A stretch of 20,349 bases of DNA from an uncultured archaeon (GTDB taxonomy: Archaea; Asgardarchaeota; Lokiarchaeia; Sigyniarchaeales; Promethearchaeaceae). The position numbers and the translations under genes are program-made. The stretch is taken from positions 16,312 to 36,660 of the forward strand of contig CAYRPF010000026.1 of NCBI GenBank assembly GCA_964426185.1. The letters are read 5' to 3'. Position 1 is the first letter of the stretch; every line of letters starts with the position of its first letter. Below the pieces are notes generated by a model. The model made no database searches and was not told the origin of the DNA. It saw only the letters and a program-made list of their open reading frames with translations. Positions 1 to 6,729 of the stretch are shown here, in pieces.

Positions 1-105
1 ACTCTTCTTAGTAGGGCTCTTCTTCACAGTTTTTTTCTTGGCGGTACTCTTCTTAGTAGCGCTTTTCTTCACAGTTTTTTTCTTGGCGGCACTCTTTTTG
101 GCAGT
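1..105 (-). repeat. 45-bp coding tandem repeat built from 15-bp pentapeptide units (KKSxx/KKKTV)
   Basis: Bases 1-45 (actcttcttagtagggctcttcttcacagtttttttcttggcggt) are repeated at 46-90 with 3 substitutions; a degenerate partial unit lies at 91-105. Confidence 0.9.
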
Positions 106-2868
106 TCTTCTTTTATGGGAATTCTTTTTGGTAATAATCTTGGATTTGTGCATTTCACGTTGTTGTTGTTCGATTTCAGCTATTAAAGAACTTCTCCGAG
201 AGTATTTCCTATCAAGCTCTTCTCGAATACCGATAAGCTTCTTCTCATAAAGAGCCTTTTGTTCTTCTAATTCCCTAATTTCACCATTTATCTTCAATAA
301 CTTAGGAGATATAATTTGCTTCTGAGTAGATTTTAATTTAGAACGTAAACTCGAAATTTCATCATGATGTGGTAATTCAAGTAATTCGGGTGTGGATGAG
401 ATCTTCTTAAATTCTGTTAGAGAAAGTGTGTGAAAATCATAAACCAAATGAGGAAAAATTTCCACGTCGATAATTACTTCAGGCGGATCCTCAAAAGTTG
501 AAACCTTATAACGTTTTTGAAAATTGATATTTGGAGTTAAACTTTCTAATTGGGAAAAAGGGATATCAATCAATGTTTTTCCTGGTTCTTTCGCGCAACA
601 AATTTTCAAATAGGACGGATGAAGGAGAAAATCGGATGTATTGTGCACAAATGGTTCTAAAAAGTATTCATTGAGGGAATTTTGAACACGTTCCAAACGA
701 ATTCCATATTTAAACGAACATCTTGCATGAAATAAAGTTGGCATTATATTTTCACATGCAGTGGATAACGGAGAGTGCACATATTTCTGATTTGGAAATA
801 GTACAGGAATTTTTATGCAAATTGGTTCATGAGAGCCATCTTTATAGGATATTTGAAGGATAATATTCCATAAGAAATCTTTTGGGCTGGGGTTTAGTAA
901 TTCAATAATTGTTTGATTAATTTTATCGCTGTAATAAAGATTTAGTTGAATTGGTAAGGCAAGTTTTTTATACCGATATTTCGAGAAAAGAGAAATATTC
1001 TTTACTGCTGTATACTCTGAGAGATTAGGAAATGAAATTCCAAAAACATTATATGAAATTGCCATCTTTTTTTGCTTTTCTAAGCTGAATATCTCCCAGT
1101 TTAATAAATGTATTGAATCCAGAAATGATTCTGAATTAAACTCTGGTTGACTGGAAACAAAAACAAAATCTGAAGGAAAATGATCATAAAAACTAATATT
1201 TGAAAAAGGAACAATGCCGGAATTGCTTAAAGTCCAGTTTGTCTCAATCAAATGGGAATCACCTTGGTAATTTTTAATGCATTGTAAAGTAAGAGATTTT
1301 AACCGGTTTTTTCCATCGACTCTTGAGAAAACCCTTAAATCATTCTCGATTCCTTGTAATGCCTGTTTCAGAAAATTAATGATTTCTTGATGTATTTCTA
1401 AATCTTGCTGTAATTGGAAACCTGCTTGAATATAGTGAATCTGTTCATCAGAATATTTAAGTAAATCAGCAATCAATTGGTTTGACATGGATAAGGTTAA
1501 TTGGTTGACACTATCTTGAATAATATAGAAGTTTTCTTTAAAAATTGAAATGAAATCCAGAAAAGTTTTGAACGAATCTTCAATTGCCTTTTCATTTTGT
1601 TTGGTGACTGATCTTGCAAGAGTGGTAATGGTGCTCCGAAGTGTTTTAAGGTATTTTTGAGATTTTTGATAAATTAAAAGCAAATTTTTCTGTTTTTTCT
1701 CTAAATCTGGTAATTTGTTAACTTTAGAAATGATTGAAACGATTTTACCAAATTTTTGAGAACGTGATACAAAAACATCAATGAAGGAATTTATTGCATC
1801 TTCGGTTGAATTACGTAAAGCTACTTTGATAAATGGAATAGAACTATGGATTTCATCTAAAGTGGAATAAAGAATATTATAAATATCAGCAGAATGCTTT
1901 TGGCTGGATAAAATTTCCTCACTAATTGCCTTAAAGAAATCATGAATGTTGGATTTTTCTAATTCAACAATTTCTTTCTCTTCTAATAATTCTGAGTAAT
2001 CTTCTTGCAATTTTGCGAAGATGTCAGACTCCCTTTGGATTTTTTCTGTATAATAATCGTGTTTTTCCTTCAAAATTTGAATATTGCGGGTGATACCAAA
2101 TTTATTTAAAGCTTCAAATTGAATTTCTTTAATTTCTCTTTGAATTAATATTTGAGATTTAGCTTCAGAGAAATTCTGAAAATTATCCAGCAATTGGAGT
2201 GATTCATCATATATCTCTTCAAGTTCAAGATATTTTTGTATAGAGTTAGTTAGCTTTAATTTTTGTAAAATAGAATTAAATGTATCGAAAATCTGATAAA
2301 TATCTGCAATAAAATCATCAAATTCTCTTGAAGACAAATCAATTGCATAGACTGCAGCCTTATGAATTACTTCCGCCATGGAATAAATCGAATCATTAAT
2401 GTTATTTGAAAATAGTGTTAAAGTTTCGGTAATGCTGAAAATAGTTTGCTTTAATTCTCGTTCATTTTTAATTTCTTTACATTGGTTTAATGGATCAATT
2501 ATTTCCTTTAAATCTCTCAAATAATCCGTAAAATCATGAAGATTTTCTGAAATTGCATTTTTAGAATGCTCTAACATCCGAATTTTCAGATCAGACACAG
2601 ATTCATCAATTGAATCAATCAACCATGAAAGCATTTCGATATGCTGAGAGATTTGATTCTTAGAACTACGCTCAATATCCACCAATTCATCGATTTTTTG
2701 TTTTGCATCTTTAATTTCAATCTTTTTTTCTTCTAAATATTTCTCGAGCTTCTCTTCCTTTTTTTCGATAGCCTTTAATTTAAATGTAAGATCACTAATT
2801 TGTCGGGCGAGTTTTTCACGAGAAACTTGTAGAAGTTCTTCAGGTTTCGATGATGGTGAATTTAACAC
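1..2868 (-). CDS. Large hypothetical protein (>=956 aa, 3' end outside window): long helical/coiled-coil N-terminal half, DUF11/Ig-like beta-sandwich region, second coiled coil, Lys-rich H1-like repeat tail
   Basis: Not in the ORF track because it runs off the window. Manual translation shows no in-frame stop from 2946 to 1. GTG at 2868 has AGAGGT just upstream. N-terminus MLNSPSSKPEELLQVSREKLARQISDLTFKLKAIEKKEEKLEKYLEEKKIEIKDAKQKIDEL; last visible residues KKSAAKKKTVKKSATKKSTAKKKTVKKSPTKKS. Confidence 0.9.
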   Translation of the reverse strand, partial: MLNSPSSKPEELLQVSREKLARQISDLTFKLKAIEKKEEKLEKYLEEKKIEIKDAKQKIDELVDIERSSKNQISQHIEMLSWLIDSIDESVSDLKIRMLEHSKNAISENLHDFTDYLRDLKEIIDPLNQCKEIKNERELKQTIFSITETLTLFSNNINDSIYSMAEVIHKAAVYAIDLSSREFDDFIADIYQIFDTFNSILQKLKLTNSIQKYLELEEIYDESLQLLDNFQNFSEAKSQILIQREIKEIQFEALNKFGITRNIQILKEKHDYYTEKIQRESDIFAKLQEDYSELLEEKEIVELEKSNIHDFFKAISEEILSSQKHSADIYNILYSTLDEIHSSIPFIKVALRNSTEDAINSFIDVFVSRSQKFGKIVSIISKVNKLPDLEKKQKNLLLIYQKSQKYLKTLRSTITTLARSVTKQNEKAIEDSFKTFLDFISIFKENFYIIQDSVNQLTLSMSNQLIADLLKYSDEQIHYIQAGFQLQQDLEIHQEIINFLKQALQGIENDLRVFSRVDGKNRLKSLTLQCIKNYQGDSHLIETNWTLSNSGIVPFSNISFYDHFPSDFVFVSSQPEFNSESFLDSIHLLNWEIFSLEKQKKMAISYNVFGISFPNLSEYTAVKNISLFSKYRYKKLALPIQLNLYYSDKINQTIIELLNPSPKDFLWNIILQISYKDGSHEPICIKIPVLFPNQKYVHSPLSTACENIMPTLFHARCSFKYGIRLERVQNSLNEYFLEPFVHNTSDFLLHPSYLKICCAKEPGKTLIDIPFSQLESLTPNINFQKRYKVSTFEDPPEVIIDVEIFPHLVYDFHTLSLTEFKKISSTPELLELPHHDEISSLRSKLKSTQKQIISPKLLKINGEIRELEEQKALYEKKLIGIREELDRKYSRRSSLIAEIEQQQREMHKSKIITKKNSHKRRTAKKSAAKKKTVKKSATKKSTAKKKTVKKSPTKKS

Positions 2869-2952
2869 AAAATAACCTCTTATTTGTATGTATATGATTG
2901 TGATATTTGTGCTAATAATCTTTGCAATAACTGAAATTAACAAATATTAAAG

Positions 2953-2974: not shown

Positions 2975-4393
2975 TTACCATTCACGTGAATGAATCACAT
3001 AATATGCTTTCAAGTCTCTTCGAATTTCTTCTGCACCTGATTCCAAAACATTGGTTATATACTGCACAGGAGTAGAAATATTTAACCGTTTGTAATGATA
3101 TTGAATAATTTTGTTTAAAACTAGATTAAATGCTTTTTCAGAGTTAATCAGTAAAAGACGTGCAACCATCGGTGCACTGTTCATATTCTGTTGTTCCAAA
3201 TTCTTAAGATTTTCTGATAGAAGATCTTTCTCTAAACGCTCTTTTACTCGCAGTAATTTAGCTTTCCTTTTTTCATCTGAGATATTGGGATCATTTTGAA
3301 TTTTCTTTATCTTGAGATTGGATTTTTCTTCTATCATCAATTTAGTGGTATTTTTAAGGACTTCCATTATCTTCTTTATTTCATAATGGCGAAAATGATA
3401 TTGTAGTCTAACAATAAAATCCGTCCTGCTTCCGGTTCTTGCTTGACTTGCCATAAAACGACTTTTATCAAAGGGTAGGATTTTTGTATACCAAGTTTCG
3501 AAAATTACTTCATGATTATCCATGATATATTTAGCGATATTTGGGATTAGTTGGGCTTGTTCACTGGAATTTATCTCTTTCATCATACGATCAGTTAGTC
3601 GTTGCATGGCATCCGCAGCATTTGTTATAATATATTTTTCAATTGCAAACTTAAGTGCATCATTAACCGTGCGAAATTGACAGATTTGGCCAATTTCTTC
3701 CACAAAATAGTTAAAACGATGCTTTTGATCGGTATTTTGCAAAATTCTTCTCCGATATGTTTTTACCGTTCGCATTAGATAATCTAGGTTGTGTAAAAAT
3801 GGATGCATATATTTGACATTGAAACCATTAGGTGTGTGAGTAAAATAGGATATTTTACACAATTTCTTCAAATCTTTTAAGAATTTTTCAGGGGCTTCTA
3901 CTTTTTTATCTATAAATGGTTCTAAAAATTCTATAAAATATTCCCTTTTTTTTGAAGTTAACTTTTGAGAAGGATCCCAAAGGGGCAGTAATTTTTCAAG
4001 TAATTCGTAAGTAATTGCATCTAAATTTATTTGAAGGTGATATTTCTTTTCCAGCTCTTGAAATCCTTTTCTTATCTCAGACTTATGAATATCCTTCAAA
4101 GTAGATATAATTTCACCGTCTTCTAACACAAAAATAGTCTGCGGTAGTAATATTTCGTTTAGGCGAATTAGATCTCGCAACTTTTTCTTCCGAATAGGCG
4201 TATAATCTCCATTTTTTTTAAGTATGCGCTGATAAAACTCGAATTTTTGGATCATATCTCGATAAATTTGTTCTTTATTATAGCAGCGAACGCAATAATT
4301 TGTTAATATATGGACGCTTTGATCGATATTTTGTTTTAATTTGCAACTTGAACAAACGAAAAAGGATTTTTGATATGTTTTTTTTTGATTCAT
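2975..4393 (-). CDS. Hypothetical protein with N-terminal C4 zinc finger and large alpha-helical body
   Basis: 472-aa ORF with CSSC-x16-CVRC near the N-terminus. The remainder is helical and charged, with no catalytic motif I recognise. Confidence 0.8.
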   Translation of the reverse strand: MNQKKTYQKSFFVCSSCKLKQNIDQSVHILTNYCVRCYNKEQIYRDMIQKFEFYQRILKKNGDYTPIRKKKLRDLIRLNEILLPQTIFVLEDGEIISTLKDIHKSEIRKGFQELEKKYHLQINLDAITYELLEKLLPLWDPSQKLTSKKREYFIEFLEPFIDKKVEAPEKFLKDLKKLCKISYFTHTPNGFNVKYMHPFLHNLDYLMRTVKTYRRRILQNTDQKHRFNYFVEEIGQICQFRTVNDALKFAIEKYIITNAADAMQRLTDRMMKEINSSEQAQLIPNIAKYIMDNHEVIFETWYTKILPFDKSRFMASQARTGSRTDFIVRLQYHFRHYEIKKIMEVLKNTTKLMIEEKSNLKIKKIQNDPNISDEKRKAKLLRVKERLEKDLLSENLKNLEQQNMNSAPMVARLLLINSEKAFNLVLNKIIQYHYKRLNISTPVQYITNVLESGAEEIRRDLKAYYVIHSREW

Positions 4394-4516: not shown

Positions 4517-5596
4517 TTACCGAATTTCTTTAAGATTTCTAATTGTTCGAATTAATTCCTTTGATGATTCAAGAAAACTCTCTTCGGCAGAATCAAGCAA
4601 AAGTGTATCGTATTCTTTGAGAACTTGCTGAATTTCGTTAAAATTTCCATCTAAATCTTCAGGAATACGTTCGAATAGTATATTTTTAGCTTTCCTCATT
4701 TTGATTGCAAAATTAGTAAGTAGTTCTTCATTAATGTGGTGAATTTGCTCTGCTTCAGAATATACCGTTTCTGGTTGTTTCACATTAACCCTATCAATAA
4801 GCATTGCCTTGATTTCCTTATATTTCTTAATGTATTCTTCTTTAGTATATGATTCACCTATAATTTCGAACTGATGATCTTCTGCTCTTTGAATATGTTG
4901 GCAAGGAAATTGAGTTAAAATAACACCTAAATGAGTGCCCTTATCGTTTACCGTAATTCCATAGATATATTTAATTCTAAAACCTCCAATTATTGCAAAA
5001 TTGGATGTATCTTGTAATAATGTGAGATGATTAACTTCATCTGTTTCTGAACTATAGACTTCATAATGCCCATGGCTATGTGCCCATCCCAAAACCACTT
5101 TCTGGTGTTCTTCAATATAATCTTTTACTTCTAAAATTCCTTCTTCCGGAACTACTACATTTGTTTCGCTTGCTTGATGGTATGGAATATAAATATCTGT
5201 AATAATCTGTGGTTTATCATGAGGAAATTCTTGTTTTTCACCCAAAACATAACAATATACTTCTAATTTAGCAGAGTCTGGCCCCCAACGATCTTTACTA
5301 ATTTCATTAACCGCTGTAGCAAGCATAATGATTTCATCAAAAGCTTTTGCAGTAATGTATACTCGATTAATTTTTGCAGGAGAATTGATGTAAGTTATAA
5401 TCTGAGAATCAGAAACTTGAATCTGATGCATTTTTTCAAGAAAGATTTGAGAAAATGGTTCTTTTTCCAAAGGGGTTCCAGAATCGGTTGACTTTTTTGA
5501 AGAATTTATCTGGTTTATAGTTGGTTTTCTTTTCGTTTTGATATTAAGAAGGGATTCCAAAGAATCTGAAATTTTGATATTAGTTTTTTTCGACAT
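4517..5596 (-). CDS. JAB1/MPN/Mov34 (JAMM, MPN+) metalloisopeptidase with C-terminal helical extension
   Basis: Catalytic Glu in KLEVYCYVLG and a complete motif LGWAHSHGHYEVYSSETD (H-x-H-x7-S-x2-D). About 100 aa of amphipathic helices follow the MPN domain. Confidence 0.9.
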   Translation of the reverse strand: MSKKTNIKISDSLESLLNIKTKRKPTINQINSSKKSTDSGTPLEKEPFSQIFLEKMHQIQVSDSQIITYINSPAKINRVYITAKAFDEIIMLATAVNEISKDRWGPDSAKLEVYCYVLGEKQEFPHDKPQIITDIYIPYHQASETNVVVPEEGILEVKDYIEEHQKVVLGWAHSHGHYEVYSSETDEVNHLTLLQDTSNFAIIGGFRIKYIYGITVNDKGTHLGVILTQFPCQHIQRAEDHQFEIIGESYTKEEYIKKYKEIKAMLIDRVNVKQPETVYSEAEQIHHINEELLTNFAIKMRKAKNILFERIPEDLDGNFNEIQQVLKEYDTLLLDSAEESFLESSKELIRTIRNLKEIR

Positions 5597-5769: not shown

Positions 5770-6729
5770 ATGTCAACTCCAGAAGAAATCCTTAGAAACC
5801 TAAAATCAGAAGATCTTGCGGCTAGAAAACGTGCAATTTTTACCGTTGGGGAGAAAAAAACCGTAGAATCCATTCCAATACTTTTAGATTTGCTTAAATC
5901 CGATCCAGATTCTGTAATTAGAAATTCTGCAGCCCGCGCATTAGGAAAAATTAATGCAGAACAATATCATGACCAAATTTTCGATTCTTTGATAAAAGCA
6001 TTGGAAGATTCTGACTATTACGTAAAAGCTAATGCATGTTGGAGTTTAGGAAAACTCAAAGACAAGCGCGCCATTCCAAGTTTAATGAAAATGGTGGATC
6101 CAAATCAAAGATTTTATTCAACAGTAGGAGATGGATTCACTCAAAATACAATTTCAGAAAGTGAAGCCTCCGAAAAAATACGTGAAGAAGGTGTAAAATT
6201 TTCCGATGTCATTGTAGGTGCAATTAAAGCTTTAGGAGAAATTGGGGATCCCGAAGGAATACCCGCATTGTTAAGTGCCTTAGAAGATAAAGATGATGGT
6301 AATGTACGTTGTGCTGCTTGTTTAGCATTAGGTAAAATAAAGGATAAAGAAGCAGTTCCTGCCTTAGTTGAATTATTAAAAAAAGAAAAATATTGGTACG
6401 TACGCCGTGATGCAATAAAAGCTTTGAAGAAAATTGGTGATCCTCGAGCTGCGGATGAGCTAATTAATAAAATTTCCGATATGTACGATGAAGTGCGGAA
6501 ATTTGCCAAAAAAGCTTTACTTTCTTTGGGTAAACAAGCTCCAACAGCAATTTTGAAACTCTACATGAAAAATCCTAACGATGAAGAAATTAAAAAATGG
6601 ATGAAAAATAATTTTACAAGAGATGAAATTCTGGAAAATATTAAACGTTTAGAAGAAAATGAAGAAGATAAAGAGAAAAAAGAAGAATTTCGCAAATTTT
6701 TTGAACATTTATTACAACCGTTAGTATAA
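5770..6729 (+). CDS. HEAT-repeat (PBS lyase / HEAT_2-like) protein
   Basis: Repeated motifs VIRNSAARALGKI, YVKANACWSLGKL, NVRCAACLALGKI, YVRRDAIKALKKIGDPRA. Confidence 0.92.
   Translation: MSTPEEILRNLKSEDLAARKRAIFTVGEKKTVESIPILLDLLKSDPDSVIRNSAARALGKINAEQYHDQIFDSLIKALEDSDYYVKANACWSLGKLKDKRAIPSLMKMVDPNQRFYSTVGDGFTQNTISESEASEKIREEGVKFSDVIVGAIKALGEIGDPEGIPALLSALEDKDDGNVRCAACLALGKIKDKEAVPALVELLKKEKYWYVRRDAIKALKKIGDPRAADELINKISDMYDEVRKFAKKALLSLGKQAPTAILKLYMKNPNDEEIKKWMKNNFTRDEILENIKRLEENEEDKEKKEEFRKFFEHLLQPLV

Follow-up and report, generated by a model that had tools for sequence, protein, structure and literature searches.

What kind of protein is encoded by the long gene at the left end of this stretch of Asgard archaeal DNA, and what could it do in the cell? 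The stretch, called the window throughout, comprises 20,349 nt of an uncultured lokiarchaeon (order Sigyniarchaeales, family Promethearchaeaceae; GenBank assembly GCA_964426185.1, contig CAYRPF010000026.1, positions 16,312 to 36,660), and the gene in question, the target, has its coding sequence at 1..2868 on the minus strand. The cultured organisms most closely related to eukaryotes are Loki-type Asgard archaea, and little is known of how their chromosomes are organised. An earlier sequence-only reading of the window had described the product as a coiled-coil rod followed by Ig/DUF11-like domains, then by another coiled coil with a basic tail, and had compared this layout with that of lamins and intermediate filaments. 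The product is a soluble, lineage-restricted outcome of domain shuffling with approximately 1,000 residues; its chain begins with about 520 helical residues, continues through three beta-sandwiches and a short coiled coil, and ends in a tail of Lys-rich repeats. Judged by sequence alignment, the first 520 residues are a tandem duplication of the arm-apex module of a hinge-less Smc of Lokiarchaeia. One chain thus joins a module of the hinge-less Smc, beta modules related to candidate cargo-binding parts of vesicle adaptors, and a tail resembling that of linker histones.

Helical part and its relation to a hinge-less Smc

The helical part consists of two modules, each running out along one long helix to a helical tip and back along another:
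2089..2868, minus strand (aa 1 to ~260): helical module 1, with an N-terminal heptad helix, a helical tip with the invariant Pro126 and a returning helix; homologous to Smc aa 614-946
1309..2088, minus strand (aa ~261-520): helical module 2, internal duplicate of module 1; homologous to the same apex region of Smc

AlphaFold2, supplied with a 9-sequence alignment, predicted aa 7-523 to be all helix (pLDDT 85.5, pTM 0.55), with ten helices of which the longest cover aa 7-108, 263-341, 389-456 and 459-523. Where the sequence-only reading had seen a helical, heptad-containing region of about 510 aa, the helices were borne out and the heptads only in part: hydrophobic positions recur clearly every 3.5 residues at aa ~15-70 and near aa 855 (to ~880) alone, with a period of 3.3-3.7 elsewhere.

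The relative of this region is a Smc of 1,487 aa encoded in the same genome (L024:4015-8478, minus strand, contig C6 of G000; SMC_N E 3.4e-45). The SMC hinge is, to our knowledge, supposed to be universal; no PF06470 hinge was detected in the 1,487-aa Smc even at E<=1. Genome-wide, PF06470 matches are confined to one hinge-bearing SMC on contig C3 and another on contig C1. BLASTP aligned target aa 13-219 with aa 637-831 of the hinge-less Smc (E 5e-12), and hhalign matched the helical part to it at 99.5% (E 4.5e-23, 293 columns). Without realignment the match extended over 330 columns, pairing target aa 8-337 with Smc aa 614-946. Module 2 alone (aa 262-527) matched Smc 615-888 at 97.8% (E 7e-13), and the alignment of the helical part with itself paired aa 4-291 with aa 257-518 at 95.5% (E 1.5e-8). 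The two hinge-bearing SMCs served as hhalign controls and scored 1.0% and 0.2%; coiled-coil composition is therefore not the cause of the Smc match. That the proteins of ~1,490 aa match by coiled-coil composition was rejected on BLASTP, hhalign and these low-scoring controls. A comparison with SMC arms had been suggested in the sequence-only reading, and it was this comparison that revealed the two copies of the apex module. In a genome-wide search the module was present at two places only, the target and the 1,487-aa Smc.

Like the target, the hinge-less Smc of Lokiarchaeia carries conserved non-heptad motifs and a Pro-containing turn, located at mid-arm where a hinge would sit. The target differs from it in lacking an ATPase head, in holding the module twice in tandem, and in the addition of beta-sandwiches and a Lys-rich tail. 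The genome-wide search with the SMC_N head (PF02463) listed no place on the target gene, nor was the hinge PF06470 matched there in the corresponding search. An ScpB-like gene and a gene for a 382-aa protein matching no family are found near the gene of the 1,487-aa Smc.

Structural matches of the helical model to four-helix bundles span both modules (e.g., model ranges 90..439 and 115..411), and would fit a tip-to-tip packing of modules 1 and 2. Foldseek against the PDB gave a single match at E<=0.001 (a chain of an umbrella-toxin particle, TM 0.17) and otherwise generic helical bundles. The helical profile, compared with the sequences of solved structures, recovered coiled-coil noise alone (C/EBP, keratin, laminin and ZorA, E 0.007-0.5). 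As a natural single-chain duplicate of the Smc tip, the target could serve for the study of arm pairing in hinge-less Smc.

Beta-sandwiches, C-terminal end and relatives

The remaining features of the gene are as follows:
1039..1305, minus strand (aa ~522-610): beta-sandwich D1, Ig-like, with the motif TNWTLSNSG and sub-threshold DUF11 similarity
721..996, minus strand (aa ~625-716): beta-sandwich D2, motif NPS...WNI.L, from AlphaFold2 and hhalign
427..711, minus strand (aa ~720-814): beta-sandwich D3, motifs F.N.SDFL.H and DPP, from AlphaFold2 and hhalign
154..312, minus strand (aa ~853-905): C-terminal heptad coiled coil, 3.5-residue period near aa 855; helix-type pattern conserved in all orthologues
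1..153, minus strand: start of the Lys/Ser/Thr/Ala-rich tail, in 15-aa units (AKKKTVKKSPTKKST); the 45-nt tandem array runs on beyond the window
2876..2881, minus strand: Shine-Dalgarno-like AAGAGG, read from the sequence, with a putative function

In the AlphaFold2 model the beta part contains about 22 strands in three sandwiches (pLDDT 86.1, pTM 0.82), and D1 is a seven-strand sandwich at aa 525-609 that includes the TNWTLSNSG...ISYNV stretch (aa 543-608, nt ~1045-1242). A DUF11-type beta-sandwich had been proposed at nt ~1040-1300, with further beta-rich sequence following. The sandwich stands as D1 and the further sequence as the predicted D2 and D3; the DUF11 assignment of the target itself stays below the Pfam cut-off (PF01345, 12.9 bits against 24.6, E 0.14), with nothing at E<=0.01 for the whole protein, and D1 is homologous to domains that do score as DUF11. 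DUF11 was matched in 5/9 orthologues at E<=5 (best E 5.9e-4). The target is without a match to PF00928 (Adap_comp_sub, cut-off 31.6 bits) at E<=5, and two of the nine orthologues match it sub-threshold (best E 3.9e-4). These alignments cover ~85-100 residues, mostly D1 to mu subdomain B. DUF11 and PF00928, both below cut-off, are the sole Pfam families found for the beta part at E<=5.

By profile comparison, D1 and D3 together matched columns 260-451 of an Asgard DUF11/mu-homology-like family at 97.3% (E 2.5e-11); D1 alone matched columns 630-717 (aa 658-746) of the C74 protein at 96.5% (E 7.7e-10); and D2 matched columns 170-218 of a paralogous family alignment at 90.1% (E 1.6e-6). All three beta modules are, on these alignments, homologous to the Asgard DUF11/mu-homology-like family, which is what the suggested tests against mu-homology and DUF11 domains brought out. 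The C74 protein itself scores 57.9 bits for DUF11, with two matched stretches (best aa 259-344), and 45.4 bits for PF00928. Related members score as DUF11 in the C-terminal domain (e.g., P0038, aa 665-734), and the profile search with the target also recovered proteins of 600-900 aa with DUF11 and, above cut-off, PF00928. Asgard proteins positive for PF00928/DUF11 (580-800 aa) are soluble like the target and have the motifs NPS..W.I.L and F.N.SDF in common with it. They have no helical part, coiled coil or Lys-rich tail, and their modules come in another order than the D1, D2, D3 of the target. PF00928 was detected at E<=1e-5 in 44/400 Asgard genomes and above cut-off in 18/400 (controls 0/14). 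Three paralogues of this family are encoded in the genome: L030:199-2481 (minus strand, 760 aa), L031:976-3183 (plus strand, 735 aa) and L032:1417-3486 (plus strand, 689 aa). DUF11 (57.9 bits) and PF00928 (45.4 bits) score on one ~110-residue stretch of the L030 paralogue, a hint that the two families may overlap on one sandwich type. Candidates for a 'C-terminal domain of the mu subunit' in Asgard archaea (PF00928/DUF11-positive) are listed in Eme et al. 2023 (PMC10307638).

The profile of the beta part found no match among the sequences of solved structures at E<=10. Foldseek of its model against the PDB yielded three matches at E<=0.001, all generic tandem Ig/FN3 (TM<=0.18), and its other matches were likewise generic (Ig/FN3, PapD-like and transglutaminase-barrel). 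In the ESM Atlas the best score of the target was 0.77 and that of DUF11-named clusters 0.76, which is a lead only. DUF11 usually occurs in secreted or surface proteins with a signal peptide or an anchor. As the sequence-only reading had it, nothing of the kind is visible here: no TM (transmembrane) helix, signal peptide or hydrophobic N-terminus was found in 10 family proteins (highest 19-residue Kyte-Doolittle mean 0.91-1.67). A membrane anchor encoded beyond the window was also looked for; the gene continues there in Lys-rich repeats to its stop, with no hydrophobic anchor. Because it has neither a TM helix nor a signal peptide, the target is predicted to be cytoplasmic. Mu-homology-related modules of Asgard archaea are thus seen in a context without a visible membrane tie, and caution is therefore advisable in taking such modules as evidence of vesicle trafficking.

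The second coiled coil and the Lys-rich tail of the sequence-only reading were both recovered. Of the 91 aa in the tail of the near-identical database protein P0003, 44% are Lys and none is acidic (Asp, Glu); the net charge is +42. Overall the tail is put at 90-170 residues of Lys, Ser, Thr and Ala in 15-aa repeats. Each of the 10 family proteins inspected has a Lys-rich C-terminal end, variable in length and sequence; scripted detection found it in nine (31-199 aa, 29-47% Lys, net +7 to +77) and missed P0004, which is visibly Lys-rich, owing to acidic residues near its end. That a Lys-rich tail is kept while its length and sequence vary suggests selection for bulk charge. Like the C-terminal tail of histone H1 and like chlamydial Hc2, the tail is made of long disordered repeats rich in Lys, Ala, Ser, Thr and Pro, with words of the S-P-x-K-K type. 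Unlike these proteins the target has no match to the H1 globular domain, and its tail is joined to ~900 folded residues. HC2 (PF07382) was matched at aa 907-956 with 20.7 bits (E 4.9e-4), below the cut-off of 40 bits; as far as sequence comparison tells, the tail is H1/Hc2-like in composition only, with no evidence of descent.

The gene comprises 956 codons within the window, and its 3' end lies beyond window position 1; the surrounding open frame (1..2943, minus strand) is likewise open at the window edge. It is far beyond chance, because more than 950 codons remain open at ~30% GC and 35-62% identity is kept in other genomes. Position 2868, given as its limit in the sequence-only reading, is exact: a GTG start lies at 2866-2868 with AAGAGG 7 nt upstream, and P0003 begins (MLNSPSS) at the same start. 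P0003 differs from the target by one extra 15-aa unit and one E-to-K difference; repeat number therefore varies between assemblies or strains. Beyond the window, 45-nt repeat copies flanking a 100-nt stretch are 94% regular yet 1 nt out of register (L003:16040-16407; window 1-96 and beyond), and the protein ends either 45 residues past the window or, if an indel sits in the flanked stretch, ~98 residues past it. The source assembly measures 3.26 Mb and is 92% complete, with the window on contig C26. Among the sequencing runs listed as matches, 16 are of DNA type and none is of RNA. Genes of the window are archaeal (TFB, histone, Hef-type helicase-nuclease, JAB/MPN protein).

A word-indexed search of 5.8 billion proteins yielded four relatives of the target at E<=0.001, and a profile search of 1.84 billion representatives yielded 75, including 13 at E<=1e-30. 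In their sources, the nearest database proteins carry the labels Lokiarchaeota, Candidatus Harpocratesius or Promethearchaeota, and the profile-search matches include DSAG12_01461 of the cultured Promethearchaeum syntrophicum (the source's name), so that ideas on the target are testable. P0014 (824 aa) is a distant member that keeps the helical part, beta part, coiled coil and Lys-rich tail. Full-length orthologues (35-62% identity, E<=1e-137) were found in 8/13 other genomes of the same family (G133, G135, G137-G142), and G136 holds a fragment of the orthologue at a contig end. Among the 400 Asgard genomes searched with the target as the query, no orthologue was found in G131, G132, G134 or G143, nor in the 386 outside the family. 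With P0014 as the query, no orthologue was detected in G131, G132, G134, G143 or G136, the sole match being a beta-module protein in G131. The target query matched 138/400 genomes, and most of these matches are open frames of ~1,490 aa; the hinge-less Smc is found across most of the order, and the target is confined to one family. In G133 the orthologue (L012:1477-5343, plus strand) is a frame of 1,289 aa with an extra C-terminal extension of ~300 aa, which is basic and has a twice-repeated segment. NCBIfam, PADLOC and PHROGs scans returned nothing meaningful for the target or for the 472-aa protein encoded next to it, and no match to a defence or phage family. A search of the full-text literature, DSAG12_01461 included, found no paper on the family, judged by title and abstract where papers came up; supplementary tables, which lay outside that search, may list the family or its locus tag.

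Possible roles of the protein

The reading favoured, at a probability of roughly 0.4, is that the target, tethered to DNA, serves on the chromosome as a scaffold or adaptor in cooperation with the family's Smc system. The polycationic tail would hold the protein on DNA by charge, as the C-terminal tails of histone H1 and chlamydial Hc2 do, and the C-terminal coiled coil would dimerise it. The two Smc-tip modules would either pack together, as a single-chain mimic of the tip-to-tip dimer of Smc, or dock on the tips of the hinge-less Smc. The beta-sandwiches could bind partner proteins, the first candidate being the co-inherited 472-aa zinc-ribbon neighbour described below. A nucleoid scaffold was among the roles proposed in the sequence-only reading, and the idea gains indirectly from the Smc kinship and the H1/Hc2-like tail.

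Several points weigh against this reading. Tails vary between 31 and 199 aa, that of one family member (P0010) has a net charge of +7 only, and RNA, acidic lipids, actin or tubulin are also among the ligands of long polybasic tails. The target is present in one family only, and the hinge-less Smc therefore works without it in most lineages. The orthologues come from related genomes, so the count of genomes shared with the 472-aa neighbour overstates independence. The putative tip packing is read from alignment ranges alone, in a model of the helical part with a pTM of just 0.55, and binding of the target to DNA, to Smc or to the 472-aa neighbour is inferred from sequence.

A more specific version is rather improbable as it stands. 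In it, the tandem modules would be a single-chain copy of the contact that closes the dimer of the hinge-less Smc at its tips; they would dock onto Smc tips or compete with them while the H1-like tail holds DNA, so that the target would act as an accessory factor coupling Smc to chromatin, with the mu-homology-related modules recruiting the zinc-ribbon partner. If true, it would also show how the hinge-less Smc dimerises.

An unlikely alternative to the chromosome-bound scaffold is a membrane-proximal adaptor in the manner of the muniscins, with the tail and helical hairpins lying on acidic membranes and the beta-sandwiches picking motifs of partners or cargo. It is suggested by the sub-threshold PF00928 matches of the two orthologues (best E 3.9e-4) and by the homologous Asgard family, which passes the PF00928 cut-off (45.4 bits in this genome; 18/400 Asgard genomes). 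However, the alignments reach only ~85-100 residues, mostly between D1 and mu subdomain B, and the PF00928-positive family has its modules in another order than D1, D2, D3. In length the tail far exceeds the usual lipid-binding polybasic patches, its composition is H1-like, and the specific relative of the helical part is the arm of Smc and not a BAR domain. With respect to FCHo, Syp1 and SGIP1, the helical part resembles the Smc tip and not F-BAR, and structural scores fall in the noise range; the likeness is an analogy at most.

It is very unlikely that the target is a cytoskeletal element, that is, a former of lamin- or intermediate-filament-like filaments or a protein that cross-links the actin or tubulin filaments of Asgard archaea. 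The parts do follow one another as in lamins, from a long helical part through Ig-like domains to a basic tail; basic tails can bind acidic filaments, and the family is limited to a clade with a cultured, protrusion-forming species of Loki type (orthologue DSAG12_01461). Against this, no Pfam Filament or lamin-tail match was found for the whole protein at E<=0.01, for the beta part at E<=5, or for the helical part at E<=1 among the matches listed there (25/37 families). Heptad periodicity is confined to aa ~15-70 and ~855-880, and the keratin and C/EBP matches (E 0.007-0.5) are at noise level. Where lamins have a continuous parallel heptad rod, the helices of the target are predicted to fold back, the region being a duplicated Smc-tip module by homology, and its three sandwiches are of a different lineage. 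The lamin and intermediate-filament analogy of the sequence-only reading fails in each feature of membership tested. Also very unlikely is that the target binds a different polyanion (RNA, ribosomes or polyphosphate), or that it is the substrate or scaffold in a ubiquitin-like pathway under the neighbouring JAMM protease; in either case it would have no specific tie to Smc. The conserved synteny with an intact JAMM/MPN+ protease and the many modifiable lysines of the tail would agree with such a role. Against it, the Pfam and NCBIfam scans of the target found no RNA-binding or ubiquitin-related domain, and the intergenic gaps (106 and 123 nt) and an oligo-T run leave co-transcription not evident.

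Neighbouring genes

Upstream of the target lie the following genes:
2975..4393, minus strand: 472-aa protein with an invariant CxxC...CxxC zinc ribbon, then a conserved helical body; matches no family
4517..5596, minus strand: JAB/MPN protein, scoring 25.1 bits for Pfam JAB (cut-off 22.5), in which the JAMM motif is intact (HSHGHYEVYSSETD)
5770..6729, plus strand: HEAT-repeat protein of 319 aa, HEAT/PBS-lyase-type, divergent; syntenic in 4/5 related regions compared

G135, G137, G140 and G142 share one gene order: HEAT (divergent), JAB/MPN, 472-aa protein, target. The 472-aa protein has full-length orthologues in nine of the 13 other family genomes, precisely those with the target or a fragment of it, and the remaining four have neither at full length. 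The two genes adjoin in 6/9 genomes (G135, G136, G137, G138, G140 and G142); in the remaining three (G133, G139 and G141) they are located on separate contigs of fragmented assemblies. The oligo-T run follows the 472-aa gene. The ESM Atlas held no usable match for the 472-aa protein. Its core (aa ~208-364, ...ILPFDKSRFM...TGSRTDFVVRLQYHFR...) matches stand-alone frames of ~190-200 aa in several other Lokiarchaeia genomes (E ~1e-6), and could be an unnamed domain. The HEAT-repeat protein shows partial matches to Cnd1 (42.2 bits, cut-off 26.4), PDS5 and Adaptin_N (36.5 bits, cut-off 37), which probably reflect generic HEAT-repeat likeness.

Just past the window, L003:15315-15968 (minus strand) encodes a protein of 217 aa that starts with a signal- or TM-like segment and has a TM anchor at its C-terminus; the gene adjoins the target in four related genomes, in varying orientation. 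Near the other end of the window, a histone-fold protein (19102-19470, plus strand) has a Lys-rich N-terminal tail of ~45 aa, the likely ATG start giving MAKKKAANKK..., and a GNAT acetyltransferase gene (19639-20058, plus strand) is located 170 nt downstream of it. Tailed 'HLoB' histones and a histone-tail acetyltransferase of Loki-type archaea are described in a 2026 preprint (10.64898/2026.07.02.735847), and the histone-fold and acetyltransferase genes of the window are candidate relatives of these.

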